NCBI RefSeq assembly: GCF_000284115.1
Contig: NC_017080.1
Span: 240,001 to 272,000 of the forward strand
Length of the DNA: 32,000 nt
Direction of reading: 5' to 3'
Origin: Phycisphaera mikurensis NBRC 102666
GTDB taxonomy: Bacteria > Planctomycetota > Phycisphaerae > Phycisphaerales > Phycisphaeraceae
The position numbers and the translations under genes were made by a program. Positions 9,108 to 27,079 of the stretch are shown here, in pieces (within the stretch, counting starts at the first letter, position 1; each line of letters starts with the position of its first letter). The notes under the pieces were generated by a model, which was not told the origin of the DNA, searched no databases, and was given only the letters and a program-made list of their open reading frames with translations.

Positions 9108-9136
9108 ATCGACAGGCCGCGGAGATGCGGCTACAT
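9108..9136 (+). promoter_or_regulatory. Candidate sigma70-like promoter TCGACA-N17-TACATT
   Basis: TCGACA at 9108-9113, a 17-nt spacer, then TACATT at 9131-9136, in a locally AT-richer segment. Purely motif-based; promoter consensus for this organism is unknown. Confidence 0.25.
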
Positions 9137-9142
9137 TGATGC

Positions 9143-11145: not shown

Positions 11146-12624
11146 TCACTCCACCCGCAGAGCTTCCATGGGAGACAGGCGCGCCGCCAGCAGCGAGGGC
11201 ACGACCGCCGCGACGGCCGAGAGCGCCACCCCCAGCGCCGCGGCCGCCAGCACCGCGAGCGCCACCTGGCCCGCGGCGGGCACGGCCAGACCCAGCAGCG
11301 GGCCGAACGTCAGCAGCGCCGACGCCACCGCGAGCGCCGTGCCCAGCAGCGCCCCCGCGGCGGCGCCGACCACGCCCAGCAGCAGGGCCTCGAGCAGGTA
11401 CATGCGCAGGATCGAGCCCGCCCGAGCACCCAGGCACTTCATGGTGGCGATCTCTCCGAAGCGCTCCGTCACCGACATCAACATCGCGTTGCCGATGCCC
11501 ACCACGCACACCAGCGCGGAAAGCCCCAGCAGCAGCGCCGTCCGGCCCCCGCGGCCCGCCGGTGCGGCGGCCGCCGCCGCGGCCCAGGCGTCGGTGCGGG
11601 CACGCGCGTGCGCGAGCGCAGCGAGGCGCTCCGCCGGCGGGACGGCCGCGGCGCCGCCAGCCCGCAGCGCCCCGGCGAGCGCCTCCGCGCCGGCGGGCGT
11701 CGTCGCGACGCCGAGGGCCGCCTCGGCGTCGACCTCCGCCGGCGGCAGGCCCAAGAGCCTGCCCACCGCCTGACGCGGGGCGGTGGCGCCGATCGCCTCC
11801 GCGAGGTTCGCGGCGTCGGCCATGCGCCGGGCTTCGGGCGCGGCGGCCACGACCGCGGCCCCGTCGAAGCCGAGGCGGTCGAGCTCGCCGGCCAGCCCCG
11901 CCGGCCGAGCCGCCACCACCTCGGGCAGCCGCCGGCCCGGGTACCGCCGCCCGAGCGCCTCGACCGCGTCGGCGTGGCCCTGCGCGACCGCGTCGATGGC
12001 CGCCGACACGCCCGCCCGCTTCCGCGTGAGCAGGTCCACCAGGGCCGCGGGCGAAGCCGCCGGGATTGAGGCGCGCGCCGCTGGCCGCAGCGCCTCGAGC
12101 TTCTCCACGAAGCGTTCCGCCTCGGCGGGTTCGGCCAGCCGCGTCGCCGCCACGCCGGTGCTGCGGCCGCCCAGCAGCCCCGCGGCGTCGGTGGCGTCGA
12201 GCTCTCTGAGCCACCGCTCCGCCGCCGCGAGCGCCCGCGCGTCGGCCCCGACCTGCTCGAAGGCGTCGGCGTCCAGGCCGCTCCAGGCCGCCCAGGCCGC
12301 GGGGACGATGCCGCGCCCCAGGCCGGCGGCGACCTCCGCGGGCGGGTCGGGCCGCGTCAGCCTCGTGAGCGTCACCCGGTCCGCGGTCACCGGGCCCAGG
12401 CGCTCCGCCGCGGCCCCGGCCACCCGGTCGGCGAGCCGCTCCCCGGCGACGGTGAAGACGAGAAACGCCACGGCCAGCGCCTGGATCGAGACGGTGATGC
12501 CCGAGCGGACGAGGCGGAAGCCGATGCCCGACCGCACCAGCCGCAGCGCCGTCAGCAGCGGCAGCCCCGGCTGGTCGTGCGCCGGAAGCCCGGCGGTCGC
12601 GGTTTCGGGCGGGCGCGGATCCAC
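11146..12624 (-). CDS. FtsX/MacB-type ABC transporter permease
   Basis: GTG start. N-terminal TM ITVSIQALAVAFLVFTVAG, ~300-aa Ala-rich extracytoplasmic domain, C-terminal three-TM FtsX domain (LSALVCVVGIGNAMLMSVTERFGEIATMKCLGARAGSILRMYLLEALLLG...). No cognate ATPase gene is adjacent. Confidence 0.8.
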   Translation of the reverse strand: MDPRPPETATAGLPAHDQPGLPLLTALRLVRSGIGFRLVRSGITVSIQALAVAFLVFTVAGERLADRVAGAAAERLGPVTADRVTLTRLTRPDPPAEVAAGLGRGIVPAAWAAWSGLDADAFEQVGADARALAAAERWLRELDATDAAGLLGGRSTGVAATRLAEPAEAERFVEKLEALRPAARASIPAASPAALVDLLTRKRAGVSAAIDAVAQGHADAVEALGRRYPGRRLPEVVAARPAGLAGELDRLGFDGAAVVAAAPEARRMADAANLAEAIGATAPRQAVGRLLGLPPAEVDAEAALGVATTPAGAEALAGALRAGGAAAVPPAERLAALAHARARTDAWAAAAAAAPAGRGGRTALLLGLSALVCVVGIGNAMLMSVTERFGEIATMKCLGARAGSILRMYLLEALLLGVVGAAAGALLGTALAVASALLTFGPLLGLAVPAAGQVALAVLAAAALGVALSAVAAVVPSLLAARLSPMEALRVE

Positions 12625-12651
12625 GGCGGGACGCTACGGGGGCCCGTGGCT

Positions 12652-12697
12652 CCGCGGACCGCGACCGGCGGAGGCCGTGCGGCGGCACGGTCCGCGG
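12652..12697. repeat. Bipartite palindromic element copy 2: CCGCGGACCG-N26-CGGTCCGCGG
   Basis: Exact arms at 12652-12661 and 12688-12697, with a 26-nt spacer. Begins 4 nt after the epimerase stop codon (12702-12704, minus strand) and ends 27 nt before the FtsX-permease start. Confidence 0.9.
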
Positions 12698-12701
12698 CTC
12701 G

Positions 12702-13649
12702 CTAGGCCAAGTCCGCCAGCGCCGCCCGCACCTCGGGGTGCTCGAAGGCGAACCCCGCCTCCGCAACCAGCCGCGTCGGGACGCACCGCCGGCCCTCCAG
12801 CGCGAGCTCCGGGTCGGTGTCGAGCACGAAGCGGCTGAAGAGCCGGACGCAAAGCGCCGGCGCCGGCGGCGACCACGGCCGCCGGTGCGCCGCCCGCAGG
12901 GCCGCCATGAACTCCCGGTTGGTCACCGGCTTCGGCGCCGTCGCCACGTAGACGCCGCTCAACGACGGGTCCTCGAGGGCGCGGAGGAAGAGCCGGTCGA
13001 GGTCGGCGTGGTGGATCCACGAGATCCACTGGTCGCCCGGGCCGACGGTCCCGCCCAGGCCCATCCGCGTGAAGCGGACGAGCTTGCCAAGGGCGCCGCC
13101 GCCGGGGCCGAGCACGAAGCTGATCCGCAGCGTCACGCCGCGCTGGGTCGGCAGCCTCGCCGCGTCGAAGGCCTTCTCCCACGCGGTCCCCACCCGCGGG
13201 GCCATCTCCTCCGGCGGCCCCGGCGGCGTCGTCTCGTCGCAGATCCGGTCTTTGGGGCGCGGGTCGCCGACGATGTGAGCCGTCGCGGCCTGGACCCACA
13301 CCGGCGGCGGGGCGGCCGCCGCCCGGCACGCCTCGCCCAGCACGCGGCACGAGTCGATCCGCGACCGCAAGATTTCCGCCTGGTTTGCCCTGGTCTTGCG
13401 GCAGTCCACCGTCCGCCCCGCGAGGTTCACGATCCCGTCCGCGCCGTCGAGGGCCCCGGCCCAGTCGCCGAGGGTGGAGCCGTCCCAGCGGTGCCAGCCG
13501 ATCCGCCCGTCGAGCCCCGCCGGACGCGGCCGCCGCGAGAGCACCTCCGGCCGGTCGCCCCGCCGGAGCATCGCCGCCGCGAGGGACCCGCCCAGGAAGC
13601 CCGATCCGCCCGCGAGGAGGGTCCGCCGCGGGGTCCGGGGGTGGGCCAT
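12702..13649 (-). CDS. TIGR01777/YfcH-family NAD-dependent epimerase-like protein (with DUF1731-type C-terminus)
   Basis: Track ORF trimmed to the internal ATG at 13649: MAHPRTPRRTLLAGGSGFLGGSL (Rossmann GxxGxxG). The C-terminus VPTRLVAEAGFAFEHPEVRAAL is typical of the family. Confidence 0.85.
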   Translation of the reverse strand: MAHPRTPRRTLLAGGSGFLGGSLAAAMLRRGDRPEVLSRRPRPAGLDGRIGWHRWDGSTLGDWAGALDGADGIVNLAGRTVDCRKTRANQAEILRSRIDSCRVLGEACRAAAAPPPVWVQAATAHIVGDPRPKDRICDETTPPGPPEEMAPRVGTAWEKAFDAARLPTQRGVTLRISFVLGPGGGALGKLVRFTRMGLGGTVGPGDQWISWIHHADLDRLFLRALEDPSLSGVYVATAPKPVTNREFMAALRAAHRRPWSPPAPALCVRLFSRFVLDTDPELALEGRRCVPTRLVAEAGFAFEHPEVRAALADLA

Positions 13650-13806
13650 GGGCCGAGCGTACGGAAGCGGGGCGGCGTCCCGCCGCCCCCCGCTCGGGGG
13701 TGCTGCGCCGGCCGCGCCGGCGCCCGCAGCGTCGGGGCAGCCGGCCGGGGCGGCGTCGGCCTCGGCTCGCGGCCCTCCGCCTCCTCCTCCAGTACCTTCC
13801 TCCCGC

Positions 13807-15756
13807 GTGCCTTCCGCACCTTCCCAGTCTCCGAGTCCGAGCGCTCCCGCGGCGGCGGGCGTCGGCGCCGAGGCCTCCACGGCCCGGCTCATCCTGCGCC
13901 TGTGCCGCCTCGCGTGGGGCTACCGCCTCCAGGTCATCCGCTCGCTGGTCCTGCAGCTCGTGCTCCTGACGCTCACGCTCTCGGGCCTGGGCCTGCTGGG
14001 CCTGGGCATCGACGTCATTGGCCACGCCTTCGACCCGCTCTCCGAGGCGAACCCCGGCGGGAACAAGCCGCCGGCCTGGCCGCTGGGCTACGCGCCGCCG
14101 AGCGCGTGGACGTCCGGGCAGCAGGTGCTGCTGGTGGCGGGGCTCATCGCGGTGATCGGACTGGTCCGCTTCGCGCTGGAGGCGCTGTCGGCCTTCTGGA
14201 TCGCGCAGCTCGTGCAGGACATCGTCGTGTCGCTCCGCAGCCGGGTGTACGACAAGCTGCAGCGGCTGTCCTTCCGCTTCTTCGACGCGAACGAGTCGGG
14301 CTCGATCATCAACCGGGTCACCGGCGACGTGCAGGCGGTGCGGATGTTCGTGGACCAGGTGCTGGTGCAGGTGCTGATCATGGCGGTCTCGCTCGCGTTC
14401 TTCGCGGGCTACATGCTCTCGCTGCACGTCGGGCTCACGCTGGTGTGCCTGCTCTCCACGCCCCTGCTCTGGCTGCTCACCGGCAACTTCAGCCGCATCG
14501 TCAAGCCGGCCTACCTCGAGAACCGCCGCCTCTTCGACACCGCCATCCGCGTGCTCAGCGAGAACGCGCAGGGCGTGCACGTGGTCAAGGGTTTCGCCGC
14601 CCAGGACGCGGAGGTCCGCCGCTTCGCCGCCGCCAACCACGCGGTGACGACGCAGAAGCGGCAGATCTTCCAGCAGGTCGCCATCTTCGTCCCGCTGATC
14701 AGCTTCCTGCCGCAGCTGAACCTGGTGATCCTGCTGATCTACGGCGGCTGGATCTACATGGAGGACCCGGCATTCACCGTCGGCACGCTGGTCGTCTTCA
14801 GCGGGCTGCTCCAGCAGTTCTCCGGCCAGATCGGCAACGTGGCGCAGCTCGCCAACTCGGTGCAGCAGTCGCTCACCGGCGCGTCCCGCGTGTTCGAGGT
14901 GCTCGACACGCCGCTGGAGATCCAGACCCGCGCCGACCCCACGCCGCTGCCTGCGCCGCCGGCGGGCGGGAAGCGCGGCGGGATCCGCTTCGAGGACGTC
15001 GGCTTCCGCTTCGGGAAGGAGGACGCGGTCCCGGCGCTTGCGCACCTGGACTTCGAGGTCAAGCCCGGCCAGCTCGTCGCGGTGCTCGGCGCCACCGGCG
15101 CTGGGAAGAGCACGATGCTCTCGCTGATCCCGCGCTTCTACGACCCGACCACCGGACGCATCCGGCTCGACGGCGTCGACCTCCGAGACCTCCCGCTGGA
15201 CGCGCTGCGCCGCAGCATCGGCATCGTCTTCCAAGAGAGCTTCCTCTTCAGCAACACCGTCGCCGAGAACATCGCCTTCGGCCACCCCGACGCGACGCAG
15301 GAGCAAGTGGAGCGCGCGGCCCGCATCGCCAGCGCCCACGGCTTCATCACCGAAGACCTCAAAGACGGCTACCGCACCGTGCTCACCGAGGGCGGCAACA
15401 ACCTCTCCGGCGGCCAGCGCCAGCGGCTCGCCATCGCCCGGGCGGTGCTGCTGGACCCGCCGGTGCTGCTGATGGACGACCCGACCGCCGCGATCGACCC
15501 CGAGACCGAGGGCGAGATCCTCGCCGCGATGGCCTCGGCCATGGCGGACCGCACGACCTTCGTGGTCGCCCACCGGCTCTCGACGCTGCGCCGCGCCGAT
15601 TTCGTGCTCGTGCTCGACCGCGGCCGCGTCGTCGAGCGTGGCACGCACGACGAGCTGATGGCCAAGGGCGGGCACTACGCCGAGGCCGCCGGCGTGCAGG
15701 CGGCCGACACCGAAAGCCGCGAGATCCTCGGGATGGACGAGGCGGTGGATCCGTGA
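13807..15756 (+). CDS. ABC exporter, fused permease/ATPase (MsbA-like), subunit 1
   Basis: Six-TM exporter domain, then Walker A GATGAGKST, signature LSGGQRQR, Walker B LLMDDPTAAID. Start ambiguous: GTG 13807 is chosen because it is the nearest start upstream of the first TM helix and leaves a 157-bp divergent promoter region. ATG 13648 is the alternative. Confidence 0.8.
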   Translation: MPSAPSQSPSPSAPAAAGVGAEASTARLILRLCRLAWGYRLQVIRSLVLQLVLLTLTLSGLGLLGLGIDVIGHAFDPLSEANPGGNKPPAWPLGYAPPSAWTSGQQVLLVAGLIAVIGLVRFALEALSAFWIAQLVQDIVVSLRSRVYDKLQRLSFRFFDANESGSIINRVTGDVQAVRMFVDQVLVQVLIMAVSLAFFAGYMLSLHVGLTLVCLLSTPLLWLLTGNFSRIVKPAYLENRRLFDTAIRVLSENAQGVHVVKGFAAQDAEVRRFAAANHAVTTQKRQIFQQVAIFVPLISFLPQLNLVILLIYGGWIYMEDPAFTVGTLVVFSGLLQQFSGQIGNVAQLANSVQQSLTGASRVFEVLDTPLEIQTRADPTPLPAPPAGGKRGGIRFEDVGFRFGKEDAVPALAHLDFEVKPGQLVAVLGATGAGKSTMLSLIPRFYDPTTGRIRLDGVDLRDLPLDALRRSIGIVFQESFLFSNTVAENIAFGHPDATQEQVERAARIASAHGFITEDLKDGYRTVLTEGGNNLSGGQRQRLAIARAVLLDPPVLLMDDPTAAIDPETEGEILAAMASAMADRTTFVVAHRLSTLRRADFVLVLDRGRVVERGTHDELMAKGGHYAEAAGVQAADTESREILGMDEAVDP

Positions 15757-17657
15757 GCCGGCGACGCCCCGATCCAGCCGCCGCGGAGGCCCCCGGGGCC
15801 ACGCTCGCGACCGCCATCACGCGGCTGGACCTCAAGGCGCGGGCCGAGGAGGAAGGGCCCGCCAGAGCGCCGCTCCGCTGGCCGCTGGTCCGCCGTCTCT
15901 GGTCGCTCACCACGCCCTACGCCGGGCTCCGCAACACGCTGCTCGTGCTCACCTGCGTCCGCGGCATCCAGCTGCCGGCGCTGCCGTGGATCCTGTCCGC
16001 GGTCATCGCCGGGCCGCTGGCGGCACGGAACTGGCCGGGCGTGCTCTGGGGCAGCGCGGGCTTCCTGGCGCTGCTGCTGTTCACCGCCGTGACCTTCCAC
16101 TACCGGATGAAGCTGTCGCTGGTCCTCGGCGAGGTCGTCGTGCAGGACCTCCGACGCGACCTCTTCGGCCACCTCCAGAAGCTGGGGATGCGCTACTACG
16201 ACCGCACCAAGGTCGGCGCGATCATCAGCCGGATGACCTCCGACGCCGAGGCGCTGCGGCAGGGCATCCAGGACGTCGTCTTCGTGTCGCTGGTCAACGT
16301 CGGCCACATGGTGATCGCTTCGCTGATCATGGCCTGGTACGACCTGCCGCTGTTCGGCTTCGTGCTGGCGATGAGCCCGCTGATCTGGGCCATCCACCGC
16401 TTCTTCGGCAGCCGGCTGGGCACCGCCTGGCGGGAGGTGCAGTCCTCGATGAGCCGGGTGACCGCGACGCTCGCCGAGAGCGTCTCGGGCATCCGCGTGA
16501 CGCAGGGCTTCGTCCGGCAGGAGCGCAACGCCGCGCTGTTCCACGAGCTCGTGAGCGACCACGCGGGCTACAACCTGCGGGCCTCGCGGCTCTCGGGCGT
16601 GTACATCCCGCTGCTGGACTTCAACAGCCAGCTCTTCCTCGCCGGGCTGCTCGTGCTCGGCGGCTGGCAGGTGCTCCACGGCGGCCTGCCCGGGTTCGGC
16701 GGCGAGCAGAGCCCCGCCGAGCAGGCGGCGACCTTCGCGGCGCTGGTGGTTTTCATCTTCCAGCTGCCGCCGTTCTTCCTGGCGCTGCGGGTGGTGGCCC
16801 GGCAGCACAACACCGCGCTCACGGCGATGGCCGGCGCCGAGCGGGTCTTCGCCTTGCTCGACACCGAGCCCGAGGTGCTCGACGAGCCCGACGCGGCGGC
16901 GCCGGAGACGATCCGCGGCGAGGTCGTCTTCGACGACGTCTCCTTCGGCTACGACCCCAAGCGGCCCGTGCTGCACGGGATCTCCTTCAAGGCCGAACCC
17001 GGCCAGACCATCGCGCTGGTCGGTCACACCGGATCGGGCAAGTCGACCGTCATCAAGCTGATCAGCAAGTTCTACCTGCCCACCGGCGGCCGGGTGCTTA
17101 TCGACGGCATCGCCACGCCGGGCCTCAGAACCGAGGCGTTGATGGCGGAGCTGGGCATCGTGCTGCAGAGCAATTTCCTGTTCACCGGCACCGTGATGGA
17201 CAACATCCGCATGGGCCAGCCGTCCGCGAGCGATGCGGACGTCGTCGCCGCCGCGAAGAAGCTGGACTGCCTCGACCTGCTCGAGCAGCTGCCCGAGGGC
17301 CTGCACACCGCCGTCGGCGAGCGCGGGGGCGCGCTCTCGCTGGGTCAGCGGCAGCTGGTGTGCTTCTGCCGCGCGATGCTCGCCGACCCGCGGCTGCTGA
17401 TCCTCGACGAGGCGACCAGCAGCGTGGACGGGCTGACCGAGGCCCGCATCCAGAAGGCCCTCAACGTGCTGCTCCGCGGCCGCACCAGCTTCGTCGTCGC
17501 CCACCGCCTCTCGACGATCCGCCACGCCAGCCGCGTGATCGTGCTCGACCACGGGAAGATCATCGAGAGCGGCCGGCACAACGAGCTCCTGCGGGAAGGC
17601 GGCGTCTACGCCGGCATGTACCGCCAGTTCATCCGGGCCGGCGAGGCAGCGTCTTGA
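15753..17657 (+). CDS. ABC exporter, fused permease/ATPase (MsbA-like), subunit 2
   Basis: GTG at 15753 overlaps the upstream stop (GTGA). Exporter TM domain, Walker A GHTGSGKST, signature LSLGQRQ, Walker B LILDEATSSVD. This is the only real part of the 1639-aa track ORF 12738..17657. Confidence 0.9.
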   Translation: MSRRRPDPAAAEAPGATLATAITRLDLKARAEEEGPARAPLRWPLVRRLWSLTTPYAGLRNTLLVLTCVRGIQLPALPWILSAVIAGPLAARNWPGVLWGSAGFLALLLFTAVTFHYRMKLSLVLGEVVVQDLRRDLFGHLQKLGMRYYDRTKVGAIISRMTSDAEALRQGIQDVVFVSLVNVGHMVIASLIMAWYDLPLFGFVLAMSPLIWAIHRFFGSRLGTAWREVQSSMSRVTATLAESVSGIRVTQGFVRQERNAALFHELVSDHAGYNLRASRLSGVYIPLLDFNSQLFLAGLLVLGGWQVLHGGLPGFGGEQSPAEQAATFAALVVFIFQLPPFFLALRVVARQHNTALTAMAGAERVFALLDTEPEVLDEPDAAAPETIRGEVVFDDVSFGYDPKRPVLHGISFKAEPGQTIALVGHTGSGKSTVIKLISKFYLPTGGRVLIDGIATPGLRTEALMAELGIVLQSNFLFTGTVMDNIRMGQPSASDADVVAAAKKLDCLDLLEQLPEGLHTAVGERGGALSLGQRQLVCFCRAMLADPRLLILDEATSSVDGLTEARIQKALNVLLRGRTSFVVAHRLSTIRHASRVIVLDHGKIIESGRHNELLREGGVYAGMYRQFIRAGEAAS

Positions 17658-17898
17658 GTCATGTGAGGCAGCGACGCGCCGCCCCCGACCAAGCCCCGCC
17701 CGCCACGGACCTCCTCGCCGCAGGCGTTCGCTCGGAGGCTGTCGGCTGTCCCACCGGCGTCTCCGCCCTGCGCCCGACGACGTGGGCGCCCGCGGCCGGC
17801 GCGTGCCAGGATCTCCGGGATGCGCCGAAGAACGATCGGGCGTTGCTCGGCGGGGGCGGCGGCGGGCGGCGTCGGCCGCAGGCGGCTCCGGCCGGGCG

Positions 17899-18924
17899 CT
17901 AGAAGGCCCACTCGAAGCGCAGCGACGCGCTCGCGACGCCGTCGGTCGTCCGCTGCGTCTCGAAGCGGTCGGTCAGCACCAGCTGCAGGTACTCGAAGGC
18001 GAATCGGGCGCGTTCGCCCTCCCACGCGAAGCGGAAGCCGCCGCCGAGCTCGCCCCGCCACGGCTCGCGCGACACCGACGCCGAGGGATCCCGCACGCTG
18101 CTGCCGTCGAGGAAGGTGTCCCACTGCACGTAGGAGCCGCCGGCTCGCCCGAAGAGGCCGGCGCGGAAGCCGGTGACGGCGGCGCCGGTGGCGGCGGGCG
18201 GGGCGAGCAGGCGGCCGGCGGAGAAGGAGTCGCCGAGGCGGTGCCCCAGCTCGACGTCGACGCCGGCGGAGGCGTAACGCTCGACGGTGCCGAGGCCGAA
18301 GCCGACCCGCGGGAGCACCCGCAGGCCCAGCGGCACGCCCCACGCGTCGATCTCGCCCAGCGGCACCCGCCACTCGCGGCGGTAGGTCAGCTGGGCCGCG
18401 AGCTCGTCGCCGAGCTGGTCGATCCAGTTGGGGTCCTCCTCGCCGATGAGATCGTGGACGGCCGACTGCGTCTCCTCGCCGAGCGCCGACGGGCCGACGA
18501 TCCCCAGGTCCAGCTGCAGGTGGTCGAGCGCGTCGCCGAGCTCCCGCTGCACGAAGACGCCGCCGTAGAGATAACCGGCGAAGGGCCGGTCGCCGGGATC
18601 ACGCGTCGGCGCGTCGATCACCTCCGGCGTGAAGAGCCGCTGGCCGCCGACGAGGCCCCAGGCCGTGCCCCGGTGGGCGAGGCCGAGCGCGTCGAACAGC
18701 GGGTCGGCCGCGTCGCCGTGGAAGGAGAGGATCGCGCCGGCGGCCGAGGTCTCGTGGCGGTCGGAATCGGCGTTCTCGCGGACGAAGCTGCCGTCGTTCT
18801 CGAAGGCCAGCGTGAGCGAGACGCGCAGCGGTGGCTCCGCCGCCGCGATCGCCTCGGCCGCTCGCGCCGCCGCGGCGGAGGCGAGCGGGAGGACCGCGAC
18901 GACGCAGGCGGGCACGATGCGCAC
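17899..18924 (-). CDS. LpxR-family (DUF2219) outer-membrane beta-barrel, putative lipid A 3'-O-deacylase
   Basis: GTG start and signal peptide (VVAVLPLASAAAARA). Family-like motifs recalled from LpxR: LFTPEVI, DRPFAGYLYGG, LGIVGPSALGE, FLDGSSVRD. Terminal aromatic residue (..RFEWAF) is typical of OM barrels. Confidence 0.7.
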   Translation of the reverse strand: MRIVPACVVAVLPLASAAAARAAEAIAAAEPPLRVSLTLAFENDGSFVRENADSDRHETSAAGAILSFHGDAADPLFDALGLAHRGTAWGLVGGQRLFTPEVIDAPTRDPGDRPFAGYLYGGVFVQRELGDALDHLQLDLGIVGPSALGEETQSAVHDLIGEEDPNWIDQLGDELAAQLTYRREWRVPLGEIDAWGVPLGLRVLPRVGFGLGTVERYASAGVDVELGHRLGDSFSAGRLLAPPAATGAAVTGFRAGLFGRAGGSYVQWDTFLDGSSVRDPSASVSREPWRGELGGGFRFAWEGERARFAFEYLQLVLTDRFETQRTTDGVASASLRFEWAF

Positions 18925-18945
18925 GACGCGAGCATGGCAGAGATT

Positions 18946-18991
18946 CCGCGGACCGTGGCGGTTCCGGCGGTCCCGGGCCCACGGTCCGCGG
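18946..18991. repeat. Bipartite palindromic element copy 3 (arms extended to 13 bp)
   Basis: CCGCGGACCGTGG (18946-18958) / CCACGGTCCGCGG (18979-18991). Counted from the 10-nt core, the spacer is again 26 nt. Lies in the divergent promoter region between the LpxR-like gene (start 18924) and the DUF502 gene (start 19058). Confidence 0.9.
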
Positions 18992-19057
18992 GTTTTCGGC
19001 CCCGCTCCTTAAGGTCAGCCGCCTGCCCGCGCGACCGCAACGACCGATGACCCCGCC

Positions 19058-20110
19058 ATGGAAGGCCCGCAGACGCCCCAGACCGCTCCCCCGGAGGCCG
19101 CCGCCGTCTCGCCCGGGAAGCCGCGCCGCCGCGACGGCTTCCGCCGGCTGTTCATCCGCGGGCTGGCGATCGTGCTGCCCACGGTGCTCACGATCTGGCT
19201 GCTGAGCATCGCCTACGGCTTCGTCGACCAGCGGATCGGCGCCCCCATCAACGCCGGCCTCCGCGAGGTCGTCATCCGCTTCTCGGAGTGGCCGCCCGCC
19301 GCCGCCGACGATTACCGCGCCACCTTCGACCGCCTGCCGCAGGAGATCCGCGACGACTGGGAGGACGTGCTGGAGCGGTACGCCGCGTCGCGGGACCGCA
19401 CGATCAACCAGCTGCCCGCCGGCGACGTCCGCGCCCGCCAGCTGGAGTGGCAGCAGGAGCTCCCAATCGCCAAGCGGCTGGCCCGCCGCCACGCCTTCAT
19501 CGAGCTCTGGGACGACGCCAACCTCGGCGGCTGGCCGGTGCTCAACCTCATCGGCGTGGTGCTGGCGATCGTGCTCGTCTACATCCTGGGCGCGTTCCTC
19601 TCGCGGTCGATCGGCAAGCGGCTCTGGAAGATCGGCGAGGGGTACATCCAGCGCGTGCCGCTGGTCGGCCGCGTGTACCCGGCCTTCAAGCAGATCACCG
19701 ACTTCGTCTTCGGCGACGAGACCGAGGAGAAGCTCTCCTTCAACCGCGTCGTCGCCGTGGAGTACCCCCGCCGCGGCCTCTGGTCGGTCGGCATGGTCAC
19801 CGGCAACACGCTGCGGACGATCCAGGACGCCGCCGGCCGCGAGTGCCTCACCGTCTTCGTGCCCAGCTCGCCGACGCCCTTCACCGGTTACGTCATCACC
19901 ACCCCCGTGGACGAGACGGTCGAGCTGCCGATCACCGTCGAAGACGCCTTGAAGTTTGCCGTCTCCGGCGGCGTGGTCGTCCCGCCCGCGGAGCTGATCG
20001 ACACCCCCACCGGCACCGCCGGCCGCCGCCCCGCGGCCGCGTTCGCTCCCGCCACTGCGCCGGCCGACGCCCCCACCCCGCCGCCGCCGGCCCCGTCGCT
20101 TCCCGCCTGA
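19058..20110 (+). CDS. DUF502-family membrane protein with long inter-TM insertion and Pro/Ala-rich tail
   Basis: ATG start. TM1 LFIRGLAIVLPTVLTIWLLSIAYGFV, TM2 VLNLIGVVLAIVLVYILGAFL. Conserved DUF502 core RVPLVGRVYPAFKQI...VFVPSSPTPFTGYVI. Confidence 0.8.
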   Translation: MEGPQTPQTAPPEAAAVSPGKPRRRDGFRRLFIRGLAIVLPTVLTIWLLSIAYGFVDQRIGAPINAGLREVVIRFSEWPPAAADDYRATFDRLPQEIRDDWEDVLERYAASRDRTINQLPAGDVRARQLEWQQELPIAKRLARRHAFIELWDDANLGGWPVLNLIGVVLAIVLVYILGAFLSRSIGKRLWKIGEGYIQRVPLVGRVYPAFKQITDFVFGDETEEKLSFNRVVAVEYPRRGLWSVGMVTGNTLRTIQDAAGRECLTVFVPSSPTPFTGYVITTPVDETVELPITVEDALKFAVSGGVVVPPAELIDTPTGTAGRRPAAAFAPATAPADAPTPPPPAPSLPA

Positions 20111-20144
20111 GTCCTCCCGCCCGCCACCCTCCCGGAGCCACCCT

Positions 20145-20438
20145 TTGAACGTCCACATCACCCACAAGCAGCTCGAGCTCACCGACTCCATCACCGCCTA
20201 CGTGAAGCAGCGGGCCGAGAAGCTGCCGAAGTACTGGAGCCGGGTGACGCGGGCGGACGTCGACATGGAGAAGCGGGGCGGCCACACCTACTGGGTCGAG
20301 TTCATCGTCCACGCCGAGGGCCACGACCCGTTCGTGTCGCACCACAAGCACGACGACCTCTACGCCTGCATCGACGAGGCGGCCAGCCGGGCGGAGCGGC
20401 AGCTCCGCGACCACCACGCCAAGCTCACGCACCACTGA
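20145..20438 (+). CDS. hpf: Ribosome hibernation promoting factor (short HPF/RaiA type)
   Basis: TTG start. MNVHITHKQLELTDSITAYVKQRAEKLPKY... matches the sigma54-modulation/S30AE family pattern. 97 aa. Confidence 0.9.
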   Translation: MNVHITHKQLELTDSITAYVKQRAEKLPKYWSRVTRADVDMEKRGGHTYWVEFIVHAEGHDPFVSHHKHDDLYACIDEAASRAERQLRDHHAKLTHH

Positions 20439-20460
20439 GGGGCCGCCGCCGGAGGCGGAG

Positions 20461-20871
20461 TCAGATCTTCCCGTCCCAGTTCGCGGGCAGGAGCAGCACG
20501 GGCAGGTCGGTCTGGCGGATGAGGTTCGCCGGCACGTCCCCGGCGATCAGCCGCTTGAGGACGCCCTTGCCCGTGAGGCCCAGGACGATGCACGTGCAGC
20601 CCTTCGCCCGGGCGGTGTTGAGGATCGCCTTGGGGGTGTCGTCGGAGAGCAGCATCACGCCGTCGCACTCGACGCCGGCTTCCCGCAGCCCCTTGGTGAG
20701 CAGGCCCAGCGTCTGCTCGCCGCGCTCGGTCGCGTCGCTCTCGGCGTCGTCGTCGTCCTGCAGCGTGGCGACGTGAGCCACCAGCACCTCGGCGTTGAGC
20801 CGGGCGGCGAGGTCGGCGATGGGGCCCACGAGCTTCTCGCTCGCCCAGGGCGAGCTCACCGAGACCAGCAT
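20461..20871 (-). CDS. Universal stress protein (UspA family)
   Basis: Track ORF starts at TTG 20937. The internal ATG at 20871 (MLVSVSSPWASEKL...) fits USP N-termini better. C-terminal GxxGxG-like motif VLGLTGKGVLKRLIAGDV. Confidence 0.8.
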   Translation of the reverse strand: MLVSVSSPWASEKLVGPIADLAARLNAEVLVAHVATLQDDDDAESDATERGEQTLGLLTKGLREAGVECDGVMLLSDDTPKAILNTARAKGCTCIVLGLTGKGVLKRLIAGDVPANLIRQTDLPVLLLPANWDGKI

Positions 20872-20994
20872 CCGGCTGGGTCGCGCGGCGGAGGGGCCGG
20901 GGGCGTTCGCGTCGGACGGGGCGGCGTTCTCGGGCAAGGGGAGCGGCCTTCGGGGAGACTTCGGGCGCGACCGGAGCCCGGCGCGGCCGGGACT

Positions 20995-21516
20995 TTACCC
21001 CGGTCGGCCGGCCGGGGTGCCCGCGGGAACGCCCCGCGCTTCCTCCAGGCCCGCGACCCACTCGAGGTAGCGGTACGCGATGCCGTGCGCGGCGTGCAAC
21101 GCCTTGAGCTCCGAGAGGTACCGCTCGTAGAGCTCGTGCTGCCAGCGCTGGGTGCCGTGCTGGCAGAAGAAGACGCGGCAGCCCAGCGGCCGCACCCCGT
21201 GTGCGGTGCAGGCCTCGCCCACCTGCCAGGGGCAGTCACCCGCGCGCGTGCGGCCCAGCTGCGGGAGGGCGAGGCCGGCCGGTTCCGGGGGCGGCGGGAC
21301 GCGCGACAGGAACCAGGCGATCTCCAGCGCGGTCACGTACAGCCGGTGCCCGAAGTCGTGGAAGTGGCAGCACTTCCCCGACTGCCAGCAGGTCGGGCCC
21401 CGCTCCGCCACCGCCGCGTCGAGGCCGGCGTACAGCGACCGGATCGCCGCGTCGACGGCGGGCGTGGCGGCGGCGGCGTGCCAGGCGTGCCAGGGGGAGT
21501 GGGCGTCGTGGCTCAT
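20995..21516 (-). CDS. YkgJ-family Cys-cluster (putative Zn/Fe-chelating, UPF0153) protein, paralog 1
   Basis: CWQSGKCC variant of the CxxCxxCC motif, plus downstream Cys residues (CPW..C..GC.VFFC). Confidence 0.72.
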   Translation of the reverse strand: MSHDAHSPWHAWHAAAATPAVDAAIRSLYAGLDAAVAERGPTCWQSGKCCHFHDFGHRLYVTALEIAWFLSRVPPPPEPAGLALPQLGRTRAGDCPWQVGEACTAHGVRPLGCRVFFCQHGTQRWQHELYERYLSELKALHAAHGIAYRYLEWVAGLEEARGVPAGTPAGRPG

Positions 21517-21556
21517 GGTGGCGGGGGGCGACGCCCGGAGATCCTCAGGACGCGGC

Positions 21557-22036
21557 TCACAGCCCCGGCGGGTTGCTCGCCGCCGTCACGCGGATGTCCG
21601 CCGCCGGGACGAAGTTGCCGCCCGGCTCGCCGGGCACCTTCATGCCGGGGCAGTGCGCGGCGGCCTCCCGCCAGCTCCGCTCGGTCTTGAGGTTGCTCGC
21701 CCAGAAGGGCCAGGTCCGGCACTGGGTCGGCCGCAGCGCGTACACGCCGCACTTGCCATGGCCTCGCTCGTCGCGCACGAGGAAGACGCAGTCGTGATCG
21801 CGGCCGCGCCGCACCTCGTCGAGCGTCCACCGGCCGTGCTTCCGCTTCGCGTACTTCTGCCGGAAGTCGAAGCGCGAGAGGCCGAAGTGGTCGGCCAGCG
21901 CCTGCTCCTCCTCGTCGTCGTACCACACGTACCCCGGCGGCCCCGTGCAGCAGCCGCCGCAGGCGGTGCAGGCGAAGGACAGGCCGGCCCCGTACCAGGT
22001 GGTCTGTTCTTCCGCGGCAGGAGGAGGATTCGGCAC
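21557..22036 (-). CDS. YkgJ-family Cys-cluster (CxxCxxCC) protein, paralog 2
   Basis: Canonical CTACGGCC motif near the N-terminus, followed by DCVFL...GKCGVY..RPTQCRTWPFW. Confidence 0.8.
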   Translation of the reverse strand: MPNPPPAAEEQTTWYGAGLSFACTACGGCCTGPPGYVWYDDEEEQALADHFGLSRFDFRQKYAKRKHGRWTLDEVRRGRDHDCVFLVRDERGHGKCGVYALRPTQCRTWPFWASNLKTERSWREAAAHCPGMKVPGEPGGNFVPAADIRVTAASNPPGL

Positions 22037-22045
22037 CGACGCGAG

Positions 22046-22206
22046 GTTAGCGCACCGTGCGCAATTCTCCGATCGCCTCTGCGGGCGAGTCGTGCCCCTC
22101 GCTTCGTCGGCTGCATCGCCCTGCCGGGGCAGGGCTGCTTCGCCTCCTCACGAGGAACACGACGCGCGGACGCAGGCCGATCGGAAAATTGCGCACGATG
22201 CTCTAG
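22046..22206. repeat. ~160-bp long imperfect palindrome (MITE-like or structured-RNA-like)
   Basis: Basal arms GCACCGTGCGCAATTCTCCGATCG (22051-22074) and CGATCGGAAAATTGCGCACGATGC (22178-22201) are complementary at 22 of 24 positions. Further partial pairing occurs inward (CCT..GCG/CGCAGG, GTCGTG, CTCG). An apex hairpin GCCCTGC-CGGG-GCAGGGC (22117-22134) sits exactly at the dyad centre. Confidence 0.8.
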
Positions 22207-22286
22207 GAGCGAGAAGGCAGCGGCCGGGACGCCGGAAGGCCGCGGCGCTCGTTGCGTCGGGTGTATTCTTCGGCCTTCCAAGCCCT

Positions 22287-22370
22287 GCCGGAGTGGCGGA
22301 ATTGGCATACGCGGTGGATTCAAAATCCACTGACCGCAAGGTCTTGTGGGTTCGAGTCCCACCTCCGGTA
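22287..22370 (+). tRNA. tRNA-Leu (anticodon CAA)
   Basis: 84 nt. Acceptor GCCGGAG/CTCCGGT (G1.U72). 3-bp D stem with 11-nt loop. Anticodon stem GTGGA/TCCAC with loop TTCAAAA. Long variable arm GACC-GCAA-GGTC. T arm GTGGG-TTCGAGT-CCCAC. Discriminator A. CCA is not encoded. Confidence 0.9.
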
Positions 22371-22385
22371 CTCGCTGAGTTTCTC

Positions 22386-22832
22386 ATGCCCGAACCCCCG
22401 CCGAAGCCGTGCCGCATCGGATGGCGTGAGCGGGTTGCGTTGCCCGACCTGCACATCCGCGGGATGCTCGCCAAGGCCGACACCGGCGCCCGCACCGGCG
22501 CGATCGACGTCGTGTCCTTCGAGGAGCTGCCCGGTGAGCGGGTCCGCTTCCGGGTCGCGCTCTCGCGGGAGGACCGCACGAGGACCCGGGAGCTGGAGGC
22601 GCCCATCCGCCGCCGCTCCGGGGTCAAGAGCGCCCACGGCAAGACGCAGCAGCGGCTCTTCATCGAGACCACGCTCGTGCTCGCCGGCATCACCAAGACG
22701 ATCGAGCTGTCGCTGGCGAAGCGTGCCGACCTCCGTCACCGCCTGCTGCTCGGCCGCGCCGCGCTCTCCCCGGAGTTCCTCGTCGATTCGGGGCGAACCT
22801 TCGTTGTCTCCACCCCGCACCGACGGGGCTGA
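22386..22832 (+). CDS. RimB-like retropepsin-type protease (DUF785, annotated in databases as putative ATP-dependent zinc protease)
   Basis: Track ORF trimmed to ATG 22386, 15 nt after the tRNA. IGWRERVALPDL...AKADTGARTGAIDV...ELSLAKRADLRHRLLLGRAAL matches the DUF785 pattern (GW.E.v.LP...aKiDTGA.tS...LtdR..m....LLGR). The gene sits just upstream of rimK, as in rimABK loci. Confidence 0.8.
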   Translation: MPEPPPKPCRIGWRERVALPDLHIRGMLAKADTGARTGAIDVVSFEELPGERVRFRVALSREDRTRTRELEAPIRRRSGVKSAHGKTQQRLFIETTLVLAGITKTIELSLAKRADLRHRLLLGRAALSPEFLVDSGRTFVVSTPHRRG

Positions 22833-22895
22833 GTCGTTCATGCCCCACCCGATCCTCCCGCGAAGCGGGCCCGCCCGGGTCCAAGGACAAGCCTC

Positions 22896-24026
22896 TTGAA
22901 GCTGCTGACACTCTCCCGCAACCCCCGCGGCTACACGCTGCGTCGCCTCCGCGAAGCCGCCCACGCCCGCGGCCACAAGCTGCTCTCGCGGGACCCGCTG
23001 AACTTCAGCATCCACGTCGAGCGGAACGCGCCGAGCGTCGTCTACAAGGGCGAGCCGTTCGCCGCGGTCGACGCGGTGATCCCGCGGATCGGGGCGAGCA
23101 TCACCCACTACGGCACGGCCGTGGTGCGGCAGTTCGAGCAGATGGGCGTCCCGGTGCTGAACACCTCGGCGAGCATCACCACCAGTCGCGACAAGCTCCG
23201 CTCGATGCAGATCCTCTCGCGGCACGACGTGGGCCTGCCCGCGTCGGCCTTCGTCCGCCGCAAGCAGGACGTGCTGACGACCATCCGGAGCCTCGGCGGG
23301 GCCCCGGTCATCATCAAGCTGCTCGAGGGCAGCCAGGGCGTCGGCGTCATCCTGGCCGATTCGGAGAAGGTCGCCGAGGCCATCGTCGAGACGCTGCAGA
23401 GCGCCAAGCAGAACGTGCTGCTGCAGAAGTTCGTCAGCGAGAGCAAAGGCCGCGACATCCGCGCCTTCGTGATCGGCGGCCGCGTCGTGGCGGCCATGCG
23501 TCGCAAGGCCGCCGGCAACGAGTTCCGCAGCAACGTGCACCGCGGCGGCAGCACCGAGGCGGTGACGCTGTCGCCGGAGTTCGAGACCTGCGCCGTGAAG
23601 GCGGCGCAGATCATGGGCCTCCGCATCGCCGGCGTGGACATGCTCGAGGGCGCCGACGGCCCGCAGGTGATGGAGGTGAACTCCAGCCCCGGGCTCGAGG
23701 GGATCGAGGGTGCGACCGGCATCGACATCGCCGGCGCGATGATCGAGCACGCCGAGGACATGGCCGAGCTCCCCGACATCGACGTCCGCCAGCGGCTGAC
23801 GCTCAAGAGCGGCTACGGCGTCGCCGACGTGATCGCCGGCGAGGGCTTCGCCTTCGTCGGGCAGACCATCGCCGAGGCCGCCTTCCGCGAACGCGAGGTG
23901 CTCGTGCTCTCGATCACCCGCGGCAGCGTGGTGATCCCGGCGCCCAAGGGCGACGTGCCGATCCTCGAGGGCGACAAGCTGCTCTGCTACGGCAAGCTGC
24001 TCACGATCAAGACCCTCGGCACGTGA
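22896..24026 (+). CDS. rimK: RimK-type ATP-grasp alpha-L-glutamate ligase (ribosomal protein S6 modification) with C-terminal TrkA_C/RCK_C-like domain
   Basis: TTG start gives MKLLTLSRN..LRRLREAA, colinear with E. coli RimK as I recall it (RDKLRSMQ, GGAPVIIKLLEGSQGVGV, FRSNVHRGG, VMEVNSSPGLEGIE). An extra ~75 aa follow (GQTIAEAAFREREVLVLSITRGSVVIPAPKGDVPILEGDKLLCYG), fitting the TrkA_C pattern. Confidence 0.9.
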   Translation: MKLLTLSRNPRGYTLRRLREAAHARGHKLLSRDPLNFSIHVERNAPSVVYKGEPFAAVDAVIPRIGASITHYGTAVVRQFEQMGVPVLNTSASITTSRDKLRSMQILSRHDVGLPASAFVRRKQDVLTTIRSLGGAPVIIKLLEGSQGVGVILADSEKVAEAIVETLQSAKQNVLLQKFVSESKGRDIRAFVIGGRVVAAMRRKAAGNEFRSNVHRGGSTEAVTLSPEFETCAVKAAQIMGLRIAGVDMLEGADGPQVMEVNSSPGLEGIEGATGIDIAGAMIEHAEDMAELPDIDVRQRLTLKSGYGVADVIAGEGFAFVGQTIAEAAFREREVLVLSITRGSVVIPAPKGDVPILEGDKLLCYGKLLTIKTLGT

Positions 24027-24102
24027 GGGCGCCGCTTCGCGGGGGGGGCGCCGCCGCCGCGCGAGCGTGCCGCCCGCGGCATTCCTCGGGTAGCGTCCCC
24101 GC

Positions 24103-25134
<1,032 letters not shown>

Positions 25135-25176
25135 GCCGCGGCCCCCGGCTCTCGCGACCGCCGTGCCCCGGGAGCG

Positions 25177-26433
25177 GTGCGCCCGCCGCGTAGCTTTGCC
25201 CGCGTGCCGGAGGCCCCAACCGAGCCCAAGCCCGAGCCCGAGCTCCTCCTCGCCGCGGCCGTTTGCGATCCGTGGGGCGAGCTCTTCCGGCCGGGCGCAC
25301 TCGCGGTCCGCGGCGGCGAGGTCGCGGCGTGGGGACCGGCCGACGATTTGGAGCGGACCTGGGCCGGCGCCCGCCGCGTCGATCTCGGGCCGGTGGTGGT
25401 CCTGCCGGGCATGGTGAACGCGCACGCGCACCTCGACCTCGCCGGGCGCGGGCCGCGGCCGTACGGCGGGGACTTCCTGGGCTGGGTCCGCGCGGAGGTG
25501 CTGCCCATGCGCCGCGCCGCCCCGGGGCCCGCGCTGGCGGCGGTTCGCGCGGCCGCGGCCGCGTCGCTCGCCGCGGGCGTGGAGGCGATCGGCGACGTGG
25601 CGGGCGTGCCTGGAGCGCGGGCGGCGCTGCGGGGCACCGGGCTGCGGGGCGTCTCCTACGAGGAGGTGTTTGGGCTGCGGCCCGCCGCGGTGGAGCGGCT
25701 GGCCGGGCGCGCGGCCGAGGTGGCGGCCGAGGGCGAGGCCGGCGGCGTCGCGCCCGGCTTGCAGCCGCACGCGCCGTACTCCGTGTCCCCGGCGGGCTAC
25801 GCGGCGTGCGTGGGCACCGGCTTGCGCCTCTCGACCCACCTGGCGGAGCTCGCCGAGGAAGCCGAGCTGGTGGCCCGCGGCACCGGCCCGATGCGGGCGA
25901 TGCTCGGGGAAGCCGGCCTCTGGGGCCCGGAGCTGGAGGAGGCCTACGGCGGCGGCCGCTCGCCGGTGGCCTGGCTGGCTCCGTCGCTCGCCGCGGCGGC
26001 GGGGCGGTTCGTCGTCGCCCACGCGAACCACGTGAGCGACGAGGACATCGCCACGCTCGCCGCCACCGGCACCTCGGTCGCGTACTGCCCGGTCGCTTCG
26101 GCCTATTTCGGCCACCGCGGCCACCGCCACCGCGAGCTGCTCGACGCGGGCGTCAACGTCGCCCTCGGCACCGACTCGGTGCTGTGCCAGCCGCCCGACG
26201 AGCCGCAGCCCCACGGCATCCTCCCGCAGGTCCGCACGCTCCTTCGCCGCGACGGCACCGAGCCCGCGACGCTCGTGCGGATGGCGTGCGCCAACGGCTT
26301 CGCGGCGCTGGGGCTCCCGGTGCGGACGACGCGTCTGCTGCTGCTGCCGGTGGACGCCGACGCCGGCGACCCGCTGCGTCGGGCGCTCGCGGGCGGCGCG
26401 CCGCCGCGGACCGTGGCCCTCGGCCCCGTCTGA
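25177..26433 (+). CDS. Amidohydrolase-superfamily protein (nucleoside/nucleobase deaminase- or chlorohydrolase-like)
   Basis: GTG start (uncertain; GTG 25204 is an alternative). Metal-binding HxH in PGMVNAHAHLD; later HANH and GTDS motifs. Substrate not assignable from sequence. Confidence 0.78.
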   Translation: MRPPRSFARVPEAPTEPKPEPELLLAAAVCDPWGELFRPGALAVRGGEVAAWGPADDLERTWAGARRVDLGPVVVLPGMVNAHAHLDLAGRGPRPYGGDFLGWVRAEVLPMRRAAPGPALAAVRAAAAASLAAGVEAIGDVAGVPGARAALRGTGLRGVSYEEVFGLRPAAVERLAGRAAEVAAEGEAGGVAPGLQPHAPYSVSPAGYAACVGTGLRLSTHLAELAEEAELVARGTGPMRAMLGEAGLWGPELEEAYGGGRSPVAWLAPSLAAAAGRFVVAHANHVSDEDIATLAATGTSVAYCPVASAYFGHRGHRHRELLDAGVNVALGTDSVLCQPPDEPQPHGILPQVRTLLRRDGTEPATLVRMACANGFAALGLPVRTTRLLLLPVDADAGDPLRRALAGGAPPRTVALGPV

Positions 26434-26449
26434 GCCCCGCGGTCCGCGG
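26404..26449. repeat. Bipartite palindromic element copy 4: CCGCGGACCG-N26-CGGTCCGCGG
   Basis: Exact arms at 26404-26413 and 26440-26449, with a 26-nt spacer. The left arm lies in the last codons of the amidohydrolase gene (..PPRTV..), and the spacer contains its TGA (26431-26433). Confidence 0.9.
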
Positions 26450-26560
26450 GGGGGGCGTTGGTGCCGTACGCGAATCCGCGCGCAGGCCATTGCCCCACGC
26501 CCCACAGCGGGTTAGGTTCCCAGCGGCATCCGCTGTTTCCCCCCCCCTCGGCCTCCGCTC

Positions 26561-27079
26561 ATGGCTCCCAGCCCCGCCCCCGCAGACGTCTCCAGCCCCC
26601 CTAGCTCCCCCGGCCCGATCGCGCAGGCGCTGGGCAACATCCCCGGCGGCGTCTGGGTGCTGACCTCCCGCGTGGACGATCGGCGGCGGGGCCTGCTGGT
26701 GGGCCGCGTGCAGCAGCTGGGCTCGCGCCCGCCGGTGGTGGCCGTCGCGGTGCCCAAGGGCGAGCCGATCATGCCGCTGCTCTCCGACAGCGGCCGCTTC
26801 GCGCTGTGCCAGCTCGGCGAGGAGGACCGCCGCATCCGCCGCAAGTTCTCCACCGAGCCCGAAGAGGACGAGGACCCCTTCCTCGGCCTGCGGCTGGCGG
26901 ATCCCCGGCAGGCGGGGTTGCCGATCGTCGAGACGACCGTCGGCCACCTCGAGTGCTCGATCGTCCGTCACCTCGACTTCGAGGGCGACCACGACCTGTT
27001 CATCGGCGAGGTCGTCTCCGCGCGACGCGGCGCCGGCCTTCCGCTCGTGCGGCTGCGGGATGACGGCTTGGAGGCCTGA
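26561..27079 (+). CDS. Flavin reductase-like (FMN-binding split-barrel) domain protein
   Basis: ATG start. GGVWVLTSR...LLVGRVQQLGSRPPVVAVAV...GHLECSIVRHLDFEGDHDLFIGEVV fits the flavin reductase family pattern. Confidence 0.78.
   Translation: MAPSPAPADVSSPPSSPGPIAQALGNIPGGVWVLTSRVDDRRRGLLVGRVQQLGSRPPVVAVAVPKGEPIMPLLSDSGRFALCQLGEEDRRIRRKFSTEPEEDEDPFLGLRLADPRQAGLPIVETTVGHLECSIVRHLDFEGDHDLFIGEVVSARRGAGLPLVRLRDDGLEA

Follow-up and report, generated by a model that had tools for sequence, protein, structure and literature searches.

A dispersed palindromic repeat with a fixed 26-nt spacing, probably akin to REP/REPIN elements, in Phycisphaera mikurensis and its near relatives

What could place four identical pairs of inverted 10-nt arms, each pair enclosing exactly 26 nt of seemingly unrelated sequence, within 32 kb of a marine planctomycete genome? 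The question is raised by a 32,000-nt stretch of Phycisphaera mikurensis NBRC 102666 (contig NC_017080.1, positions 240,001 to 272,000 of the forward strand), here called the window and numbered from its first nucleotide. With a probability of roughly 0.6, we take the four sites to be copies of a dispersed, lineage-specific family of miniature palindromic repeats of ~46-56 bp, carried by P. mikurensis and its near relatives and similar to the repetitive extragenic palindromic (REP) and REPIN elements; the family is previously undescribed, and is best filed beside those elements. In bacteria, the regions between genes, the 3' ends of mRNAs and genome rearrangement are all shaped by small palindromic repeats; what is known of the biology of such repeats comes, to our knowledge, nearly all from Proteobacteria.

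A search of the window for CCGCGGACCG-N(10-40)-CGGTCCGCGG returned four sites, at 1158, 12652, 18946 and 26404, each with a spacer of 26 nt, and none of 100 dinucleotide-preserving shuffles of the window (G+C ~74%) contained any match to the pattern. The original prediction, made from the sequence alone, had held these four exact sites to be no product of chance; the coordinates were reproduced and the shuffles bear this out. Two finer points of that prediction, namely that the arms of the third copy reach 13 bp and that TGGC opens the spacers of both the third and the fourth copy, were also seen. Its count of two unpaired half-sites was one too low: there are three, all on the minus strand and all within coding sequences (CDSs), at 4476-4485 in a histidine-kinase gene (with no partner at 26 nt), at 12377-12386 in an FtsX-family gene and, the one overlooked, at 25304-25313 in an amidohydrolase gene. 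With ~1 expected on the prediction's own composition estimate, these three are most likely chance occurrences and not members of the family.

Copy 1 (1158-1203) lies between convergent genes, 4 nt past the stop of the minus-strand transketolase gene and 110 nt past that of a 264-aa gene, and copy 2 (12652-12697) separates two tandem genes on the minus strand, lying 4 nt after the epimerase stop and 27 nt ahead of the FtsX-family start. Copy 3 (18946-18991) occupies a 133-nt divergent region, 21 nt from the start of LpxR (18924, minus strand) and 66 nt from that of DUF502 (19058, plus strand). The last 30 nt of the amidohydrolase gene are covered by copy 4 (26404-26449), which stands 111 nt upstream of a flavin reductase gene; the amidohydrolase stop codon falls inside its spacer (gene end 26433). 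All four placements agree between the called genes and the earlier description.

Membership in a larger family is directly observed. The flanks of the window add ~18 kb (loci L232 and L234), bringing the DNA covered in the source genome to ~50 kb, and hold three further perfect copies with a 26-nt spacer (L234 409, L234 4271 and L232 5791) as well as one with two mismatches in one arm (L232 1088), which makes seven perfect copies and one two-mismatch copy. One of the seven perfect copies lies between convergent genes, four lie between tandem genes (two of these overlapping a stop codon) and two lie in divergent promoter regions. With a coding fraction of 0.888, just 12.4% of all 46-mers have an overlap of 30 nt or less with a CDS; the probability that all seven perfect copies would be intergenic or overlap only a gene end is ~4e-7. 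The repeat thus consists, as REP elements do, of many dispersed and nearly all extragenic palindromic copies.

Relatives were reached through DUF502 and transketolase orthologues, giving a clade set of ~130 kb (127.5 kb for the count of spacings) from P. mikurensis together with close relatives numbering three to five (one organism may have supplied more than one contig). The repeat is carried by relatives at 83-91% protein identity (L236/L244, L241, L243 and L245). L236 has four copies with a 26-nt spacer, one perfect and three with one or two arm mismatches; L244, from the same metagenome-assembled genome, has six perfect copies and one with a single mismatch in 22 kb; L245 has two perfect copies and one with a single mismatch; L241/L242 has one copy with one mismatch, L243 one perfect copy and L246 (2.2 kb) none. 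The clade total is 24 copies, all with a 26-nt spacer, or ~1 per 7 kb. No copy was found in the more distant Phycisphaerae-like loci L237 (21 kb), L239 (17 kb) and L240 (21 kb), and the family is therefore lineage-specific and patchy. Another marine planctomycete (L164) also carries the repeat; in the marine metagenome assembly that supplies most of the excess of 26-nt spacers (see below), a two-copy contig encodes a MamK-like actin whose named relatives are all Planctomycetota.

The bias towards gene ends extends through the clade, with stop-proximal copies, 2-7 nt past a stop or overlapping it, represented by copies 1, 2 and 4, L234-4271, L236-12409, L244-11980, L244-17230 and L245-13409. 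Many metagenome copies likewise lie 1-16 nt past a stop, as judged qualitatively from a crude gene caller based on G+C at third codon positions (GC3). The intergenic and 3'-end enrichment noted in the original prediction accordingly holds in the source genome and its relatives. Its failure to recognise a described element is also borne out: no Rfam family other than a tRNA reached its gathering score in the window, and the literature searched gave nothing relevant to the repeat sequence, the matches to its 10-mers being cloning primers. Viral contigs gave no matches, and those in a plasmid collection were at chance level.

Exact spacing sets the family apart from coincidence. Within the 127.5 kb of the clade, 21 arm pairs (at most one mismatch in total) have a spacer of 26 nt; all other spacings from 0 to 2500 occur at most once each, as single coincidences, and no arm pair encloses a gene. 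A metagenome scan for spacers of 24, 25, 26, 27 and 28 nt gave 15, 13, 56, 13 and 15 matches, respectively, with the excess at 26 coming mostly from one marine assembly. In unrelated high-GC genomes, used as a null for spacers of 11-41 nt, spacer lengths spread over that whole range, and 3/121 were at 26 among the matches listed. Rather than pairing at many spacings with no excess at 26, the arms thus give counts that peak at 26 both in the clade and in the metagenomes.

The spacers had been called unrelated and unconstrained from inspection of four copies by eye; across the family they prove to be diverged homologues in which compensating indels hold the length at 26 nt. Pairwise alignment of the 24 clade spacers gave a mean score of 1.15 vs -3.0 for shuffled spacers, and three pairs scored 10 or more, vs none in the shuffled null. 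The best pairs (L244-7109 with L244-11980, L236-14575 with L244-1670, and window copy 3 with L244-17230) align only when +1/-1 indels compensate each other, one such pair of indels sufficing for copy 3, and the total stays at 26. A position-weight matrix over the copies with 26-nt spacers yields a weak consensus, roughly TCGCCGGTTTCGGC...GAAAC.GGCGA, which copy 1 fits well and which copies 2 and 4 fit no better than background does. The spacer of copy 1, TCGCTCGTTTCGGCTGAAAGCGTCGG, is nearly wholly self-complementary and is the nearest of the copies to the family consensus; that of copy 2 is GC-rich and distant from it. After the transketolase gene of L244 (11975-12030) lies a 56-nt near-perfect hairpin, TGAATCCGCGGACCGTCGGCGGTTTGGATGAAATCTGCCGACGGTCCGCGGATTCA, with a DNA fold of -30 kcal/mol (z = -9.3). 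We read the spacers as diverged homologues of a core that was probably once fully palindromic and later drifted; given this shared ancestry among the cores and with a palindromic prototype, the sites spread as copies of an element and did not arise in place. Captured CRISPR-like spacers are ruled out by the core homology and the palindromic prototype, and no viral matches were seen.

Some copies carry symmetric outward extensions of the arms (GAAT...ATTC or CCCGAC...GTCGGG), from which it would follow that the prototype arms were longer than 10 nt, with only the inner 10 (or 11) remaining fixed. The dinucleotide AT adjoins ~23-31% of arms, independently on each side, which rules out a one-sided AT tag. 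Two local resemblances between copies were also seen. The 11-mer CGGCTGAAAGC occurs in the spacers of copy 1 (1168-1193) and of a flank copy (L234 4281-4306) at offsets 11-21 and 1-11, a 10-nt register shift that leaves the spacer total at 26. Two neighbouring copies in L244 (6636-6654 and 6904-6922) share an identical 19 nt, made up of the last 9 spacer nucleotides and the right arm, and differ in the rest of their spacers, which hints at recombination or template switching between copies.

Presence and absence at orthologous junctions can be followed in the block transketolase-PqiA-DS-MatE-h136-PALP-DUF2784, which is syntenic in the source genome, L244 and L245. After the DS stop, the source and L244 (14-nt intergenic region) are empty and L245 is filled, having the same region plus 46+3 nt. 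After the 136-aa gene, the source is empty (24-nt region), L244 is filled 4 nt past the stop and L245 has a different palindrome. Between DUF2784 and PALP the source is filled and L245 is empty, with DUF2784 not detected in L244; here the source is ~48 bp longer than L245 and its gene ends inside the copy, the boundaries being approximate. After the transketolase stop, the source (4 nt past) and L244 (2 nt past) are both filled, L245 has an unrelated palindrome with 33-nt arms and L246 is empty. Since the same junctions are filled in one genome and empty in another, the repeat is gained or lost on the timescale of these genomes' divergence. Direct repeats of 1-8 nt in the flanks are no commoner than in permutations, and the filled and empty junctions have no target-site duplication.

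For palindromic insertions of any kind, the positions just past stops serve as hot spots or safe havens. Unrelated long palindromes with arms of 29-52 nt lie directly after stops at L245 11978-12075, L245 ~16253-16334 and L244 6042-6219, occupying junctions at which P. mikurensis or L244 has the 46-bp repeat; in this clade, palindromic elements seem generally to land at the 3' ends of genes. Insertion within a gene can also be tolerated. A 284-aa gene of L244 without a Pfam match (6218-7072, minus strand) has two copies inside its CDS, and because its GC3 remains 0.89-0.92 in a single frame to either side of each copy, both are translated in frame, each as a short insert. Two gene-sized differences were noted in the same comparison: the 264-aa gene between PqiA and transketolase (window 253-1047, plus strand) is present in P. 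mikurensis and not in the L244 and L245 syntenic blocks, from which a RES/Xre-like pair beside the deoxyhypusine synthase gene (L234 8203-9281) is likewise absent. Both appear to be recent insertions.

How might such a repeat spread? A fresh copy would be a near-perfect, hairpin-forming palindrome, of which only the two 10-bp ends stay intact, exactly 26 bp apart, often extended outwards by AT/GAAT or GAC and inwards by a pyrimidine at one end and a purine at the opposite one, with the core between them drifting at a roughly neutral rate. Copies land mostly in intergenic DNA, often just past stops, without target-site duplication, and can survive in frame within a gene. Most probably, a dedicated protein recognises both ends together, at the base of a single-stranded DNA hairpin, and copies or moves the element, as RAYT-type HUH-Y1 enzymes (RAYT, REP-associated tyrosine transposase) do with REPs; the geometry of that protein would tolerate only the 26-nt distance.

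A candidate for this protein is encoded by a divergent RAYT-like gene, 3.7 kb past the window on its right-hand side. It was the single gene returned by a scan of all fetched loci for a HUH motif followed by a Y motif, and is found at L232 3704-4768 (plus strand), or ~35725-36789 on the minus strand in window orientation. The product, of 336-354 aa, has the motifs NHVH, WA and YVDLNP, an insertion that separates the two motifs and a long C-terminal tail, partly of low complexity. It matches NCBIfam NF047646 REP_Tyr_transpos ('REP-associated tyrosine transposase') at E = 7.6e-10 (38.8 bits, cut-off 80) and Pfam PF01797 Y1_Tnp at E = 0.009 (16.5 bits, cut-off 23), and the precomputed Pfam annotation has no entry for it. 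No RAYT-like homologue was found in the other fetched loci, and a PDB sequence search returned only spurious matches. The source genome thus has a RAYT-like gene, which may be linked to the repeat. Some 30 nt upstream of this gene, in an unusually AT-rich leader, lies a perfect hairpin, TCAAGGGGAC-T-GTCCCCTTGA (L232 3652-3672), which is unique among all fetched DNA.

A number of findings weigh against a REP/REPIN-like element of this kind, and we take them together here, starting with the arms. Sixteen of the 24 clade copies have no arm mismatch, four have one, four have two and none has more. A profile built from these copies and run with filters off returned the same 24 at E <= 2e-4, the next matches being fragments at E >= 0.37. 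Neutral decay predicts copies with three or more mismatches to be as numerous as perfect ones, and the missing decayed copies fit selection on the arms or very fast turnover better than they fit a simple selfish element. The junction after the transketolase gene can be compared between the source and L244, whose transketolases share 90% protein identity and 71% identity at four-fold sites; there the arms are identical at 20/20 positions and the cores at 13/26. If both copies descend from a single insertion, the arms have stayed unchanged and the core has diverged at close to the neutral rate (P of 20/20 under neutrality, ~1e-3); as the offsets from the stop differ by 2 nt, separate insertions at a hot spot are also conceivable. 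Perfect arms at this shared junction, together with the absence of a decayed tail, point to selection acting on the ends, to re-copying or to a turnover that far outpaces mutation.

The folding of the element belongs to the same set of findings. When the arms were constrained to pair, spacer folding was no better than that of mononucleotide shuffles, at a mean z of -0.56 for the seven source copies, -0.79 for metagenome copies with 26-nt spacers and -0.81 for controls with spacers of 24, 25, 27 or 28 nt. In-register complementarity exceeds permutation only at spacer positions 1/26 (0.56 vs 0.37), where covariation has P = 0.0005 with chance matches included and ~0.05 within copies of the pyrimidine/purine type; pairs 2/25 to 13/14 have no covariation. 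The first spacer nucleotide is a pyrimidine and the last a purine in nearly every copy, and the combinations TA, CG, TG and CA are all common. The arms are invariant in perfect copies, which makes them uninformative on selection for pairing, and the arm mismatches in L236, L241 and L245 are uncompensated. With folding like that of shuffles and no pairing covariation, the hairpin is not demonstrably the selected form, and an unpaired loop of 24-26 nt would be unusual in a substrate of an HUH enzyme. The fold scores near those of shuffles and the lack of covariation at in-register pairs 2-13 rule out a structured loop.

The tag and the candidate protein complete the list. Neither a GTAG nor a CGTC tag was found, the flank profile consisting only of a symmetric, partial A-[G/T] ... 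[C/A]-T; both family matches of the RAYT-like protein fall under their curated cut-offs; and its gene is not flanked by the repeat, the nearest copies being 1.0 and 2.6 kb off, behind other genes. At ~1 copy per 7 kb, the 1.0-kb proximity means little.

Arm conservation keeps alive another reading, which we consider unlikely, namely that a host nucleoid-associated protein or global regulator binds the sites as an array of bipartite duplex targets, with a dimer or tetramer sitting on half-sites at a fixed distance, the arms under selection and the core free bar its bendability. It would account for arms that are perfect in 16/24 copies with more decayed copies missing, for 20/20 arm positions held at an apparently orthologous copy with a 50% identical core, for the strict 26-nt spacing, and for the first spacer position being a pyrimidine and the last a purine with only a weak preference for pairing and no maintained pairing beyond. 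A/T-rich positions (flank -2/-1, the A or T within each arm, and spacer 7-10 and 17-20) also recur roughly once per helical turn, or about every 10 bp. The orientations of these A/T tracts are uneven, however, with nine T...A, none A...T and nine on the same strand, and look like inheritance from one or two prototypes more than selection for bendability, so that the phasing is a weak hint. Gain and loss at orthologous junctions of close relatives and the two copies in frame within a gene weaken this view further, every intergenic context is occupied, and the shared ancestry of the cores with a full palindrome implies that the sites spread as copies; a density of ~1 site per 7 kb is much too high for a specific regulator, and no candidate protein was found. 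The suggestion in the original prediction of a protein that measures the distance between duplex half-sites may hold: the strictly fixed length and the lack of maintained spacer pairing agree with it, and the gain and loss of copies, some of them in frame in a gene, weigh against it as a host regulatory role exercised site by site.

For a REP/REPIN-like repeat, the same arm conservation could be accommodated by a more specific proposal, which we offer as speculative and on balance improbable. The repeat and the enlarged, divergent RAYT-like protein would constitute a new REP-RAYT-type class in Planctomycetes, in which the protein acts as a ruler on two 10-bp ends at exactly 26 nt, and copies are kept by a continuing interaction (repair, re-copying or host-level selection) and not by recent origin. 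Such a partnership would explain the perfect arms, the neutral core and the lack of decayed copies at once.

The position of so many copies 2-7 nt after a stop, or overlapping it, raises a third possibility, less probable again than the host-protein sites, namely that the repeat acts in RNA, its GC-rich stem serving as a terminator, a hairpin protecting the 3' end or a brake on translation termination. As RNA, the stems are strong (-35 to -47 kcal/mol in 66-nt windows), and in E. coli REPs stabilise upstream mRNA, with those within ~15 nt of a stop lowering translation. A terminator, however, would need a U-tract, and TTTT follows only copy 3, which sits in a divergent promoter region; a promoter and terminator scan of 12000-27000 picked up none of the copies there. 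Some 5-7 of the 24 clade copies lie in divergent promoter regions and at least two inside genes, and the element is symmetric. The bias of G·U vs C·A at the first spacer pair relative to transcription was mixed and gave no signal, so that U·G and C·A pairs occur at one variable stem position without preference for the transcribed strand. Structure alone, moreover, would not demand one identical 10-nt sequence in all copies, and the spacers have no covariation. With a dispersed REP-like repeat, an effect on RNA would be secondary: by analogy with REPs, copies at 3' ends probably provide the mRNA with a strong GC-rich stem immediately downstream of the stop codon.

An over-represented 10-nt word in inverted pairs near gene ends, with ComEC and pilin-like genes nearby, also recalls DNA-uptake signals, inverted pairs of which (as in Neisseria and Pasteurellaceae) double as terminators. 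Such signals are found for the most part singly, often within genes, and where they are paired the loop is short and varies in length. Here, lone half-sites are at chance level (three in the window vs ~1 expected) and the whole excess consists of pairs at exactly 26 nt, which makes an uptake signal very improbable.

Three further features of the window concern neither the repeat nor its candidate partner. A tRNA-Leu gene with anticodon CAA at 22287-22371 (plus strand) is the sole Rfam or ARAGORN match in the window. The called 287-aa gene at 6868-7731 (minus strand) has no Pfam match and a flat G+C over codon positions, and the ~580 nt between ParB and HldE (9064-9646) are likewise without coding signature; these two could be a mis-called gene, a pseudogene or a non-coding RNA.

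As a REP/REPIN-like family, the repeat provides a planctomycete case with a sharp signature, in which ends and spacer length are exact to the base, the core is near-neutral and decayed copies are almost absent. This signature gives a handle on a question that concerns REP-type elements generally, that is, whether copies are merely young or actively maintained, and the 46-bp sequence is itself a practical probe for its recognition protein. In annotation, the family accounts for odd C-terminal extensions (in the region, two genes terminate within a copy) and for the 16-codon inserts in a relative's gene.

How does the repeat compare with known systems? It shares with miniature inverted-repeat transposable elements (MITEs) such as Correia and RUP its terminal inverted repeats, non-coding interior, dispersal and insertion beside or into genes, and with Rickettsia palindromic elements the in-frame survival inside a CDS. 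Unlike MITEs, it makes no target-site duplication and has no parent insertion sequence with the same ends in the fetched data; at 46 bp it is also far smaller than known MITEs, and too short to loop as a duplex for a DDE transpososome. Rare class 3 HUH-Y1 (TnpA-Y1) genes, found mainly in Planctomycetes and Acidobacteria, come with atypical, high-copy, non-GTAG secondary structures (Quentin et al. 2018, PMC6006769). The Phycisphaera protein has in common with them the HUH motif NHVH and the next motif, W[TA]; it differs in its Y motif (YVDLNP vs YV[VI]..EQ) and in its length (~336-354 vs ~178 aa). The class 3 structures have a 5' CnGA foot and flank their gene (PMC6006769). Phycisphaera is not mentioned in PMC6006769, nor in an account of REP families that describes REP dimers whose spacers are similar in length and different in sequence, as well as repeat families of the terminal-inverted-repeat type tied to RAYT-like genes (PMC3733652).

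From REP and REPIN elements the repeat departs in lacking the GTAG/CGTC tag, in its unpaired loop of 24-26 nt and in a length fixed to the base. The mini-palindromes CCGCGG and CGGWCCG within its arms cannot fold alone, and with arms of 10-14 nt that form no stem-loop of their own it is not a doublet of REP units; from REP-RAYT systems it differs in that the RAYT-like gene is divergent and not flanked by the repeat. Of the systems considered, a REP-like family, which the original prediction had named as an alternative, is nevertheless the best fit. Like REP, REPIN and BIME elements, the repeat is short, GC-rich and hairpin-capable, dense in extragenic DNA and often just downstream of a CDS, with a conserved outer stem, a less conserved middle, a patchy, lineage-specific spread and no target-site duplication; it keeps spacer length while spacer sequence varies, as REP doublets do (PMC3733652), and, as in REP-RAYT systems, a RAYT-like gene is present in the same genome.

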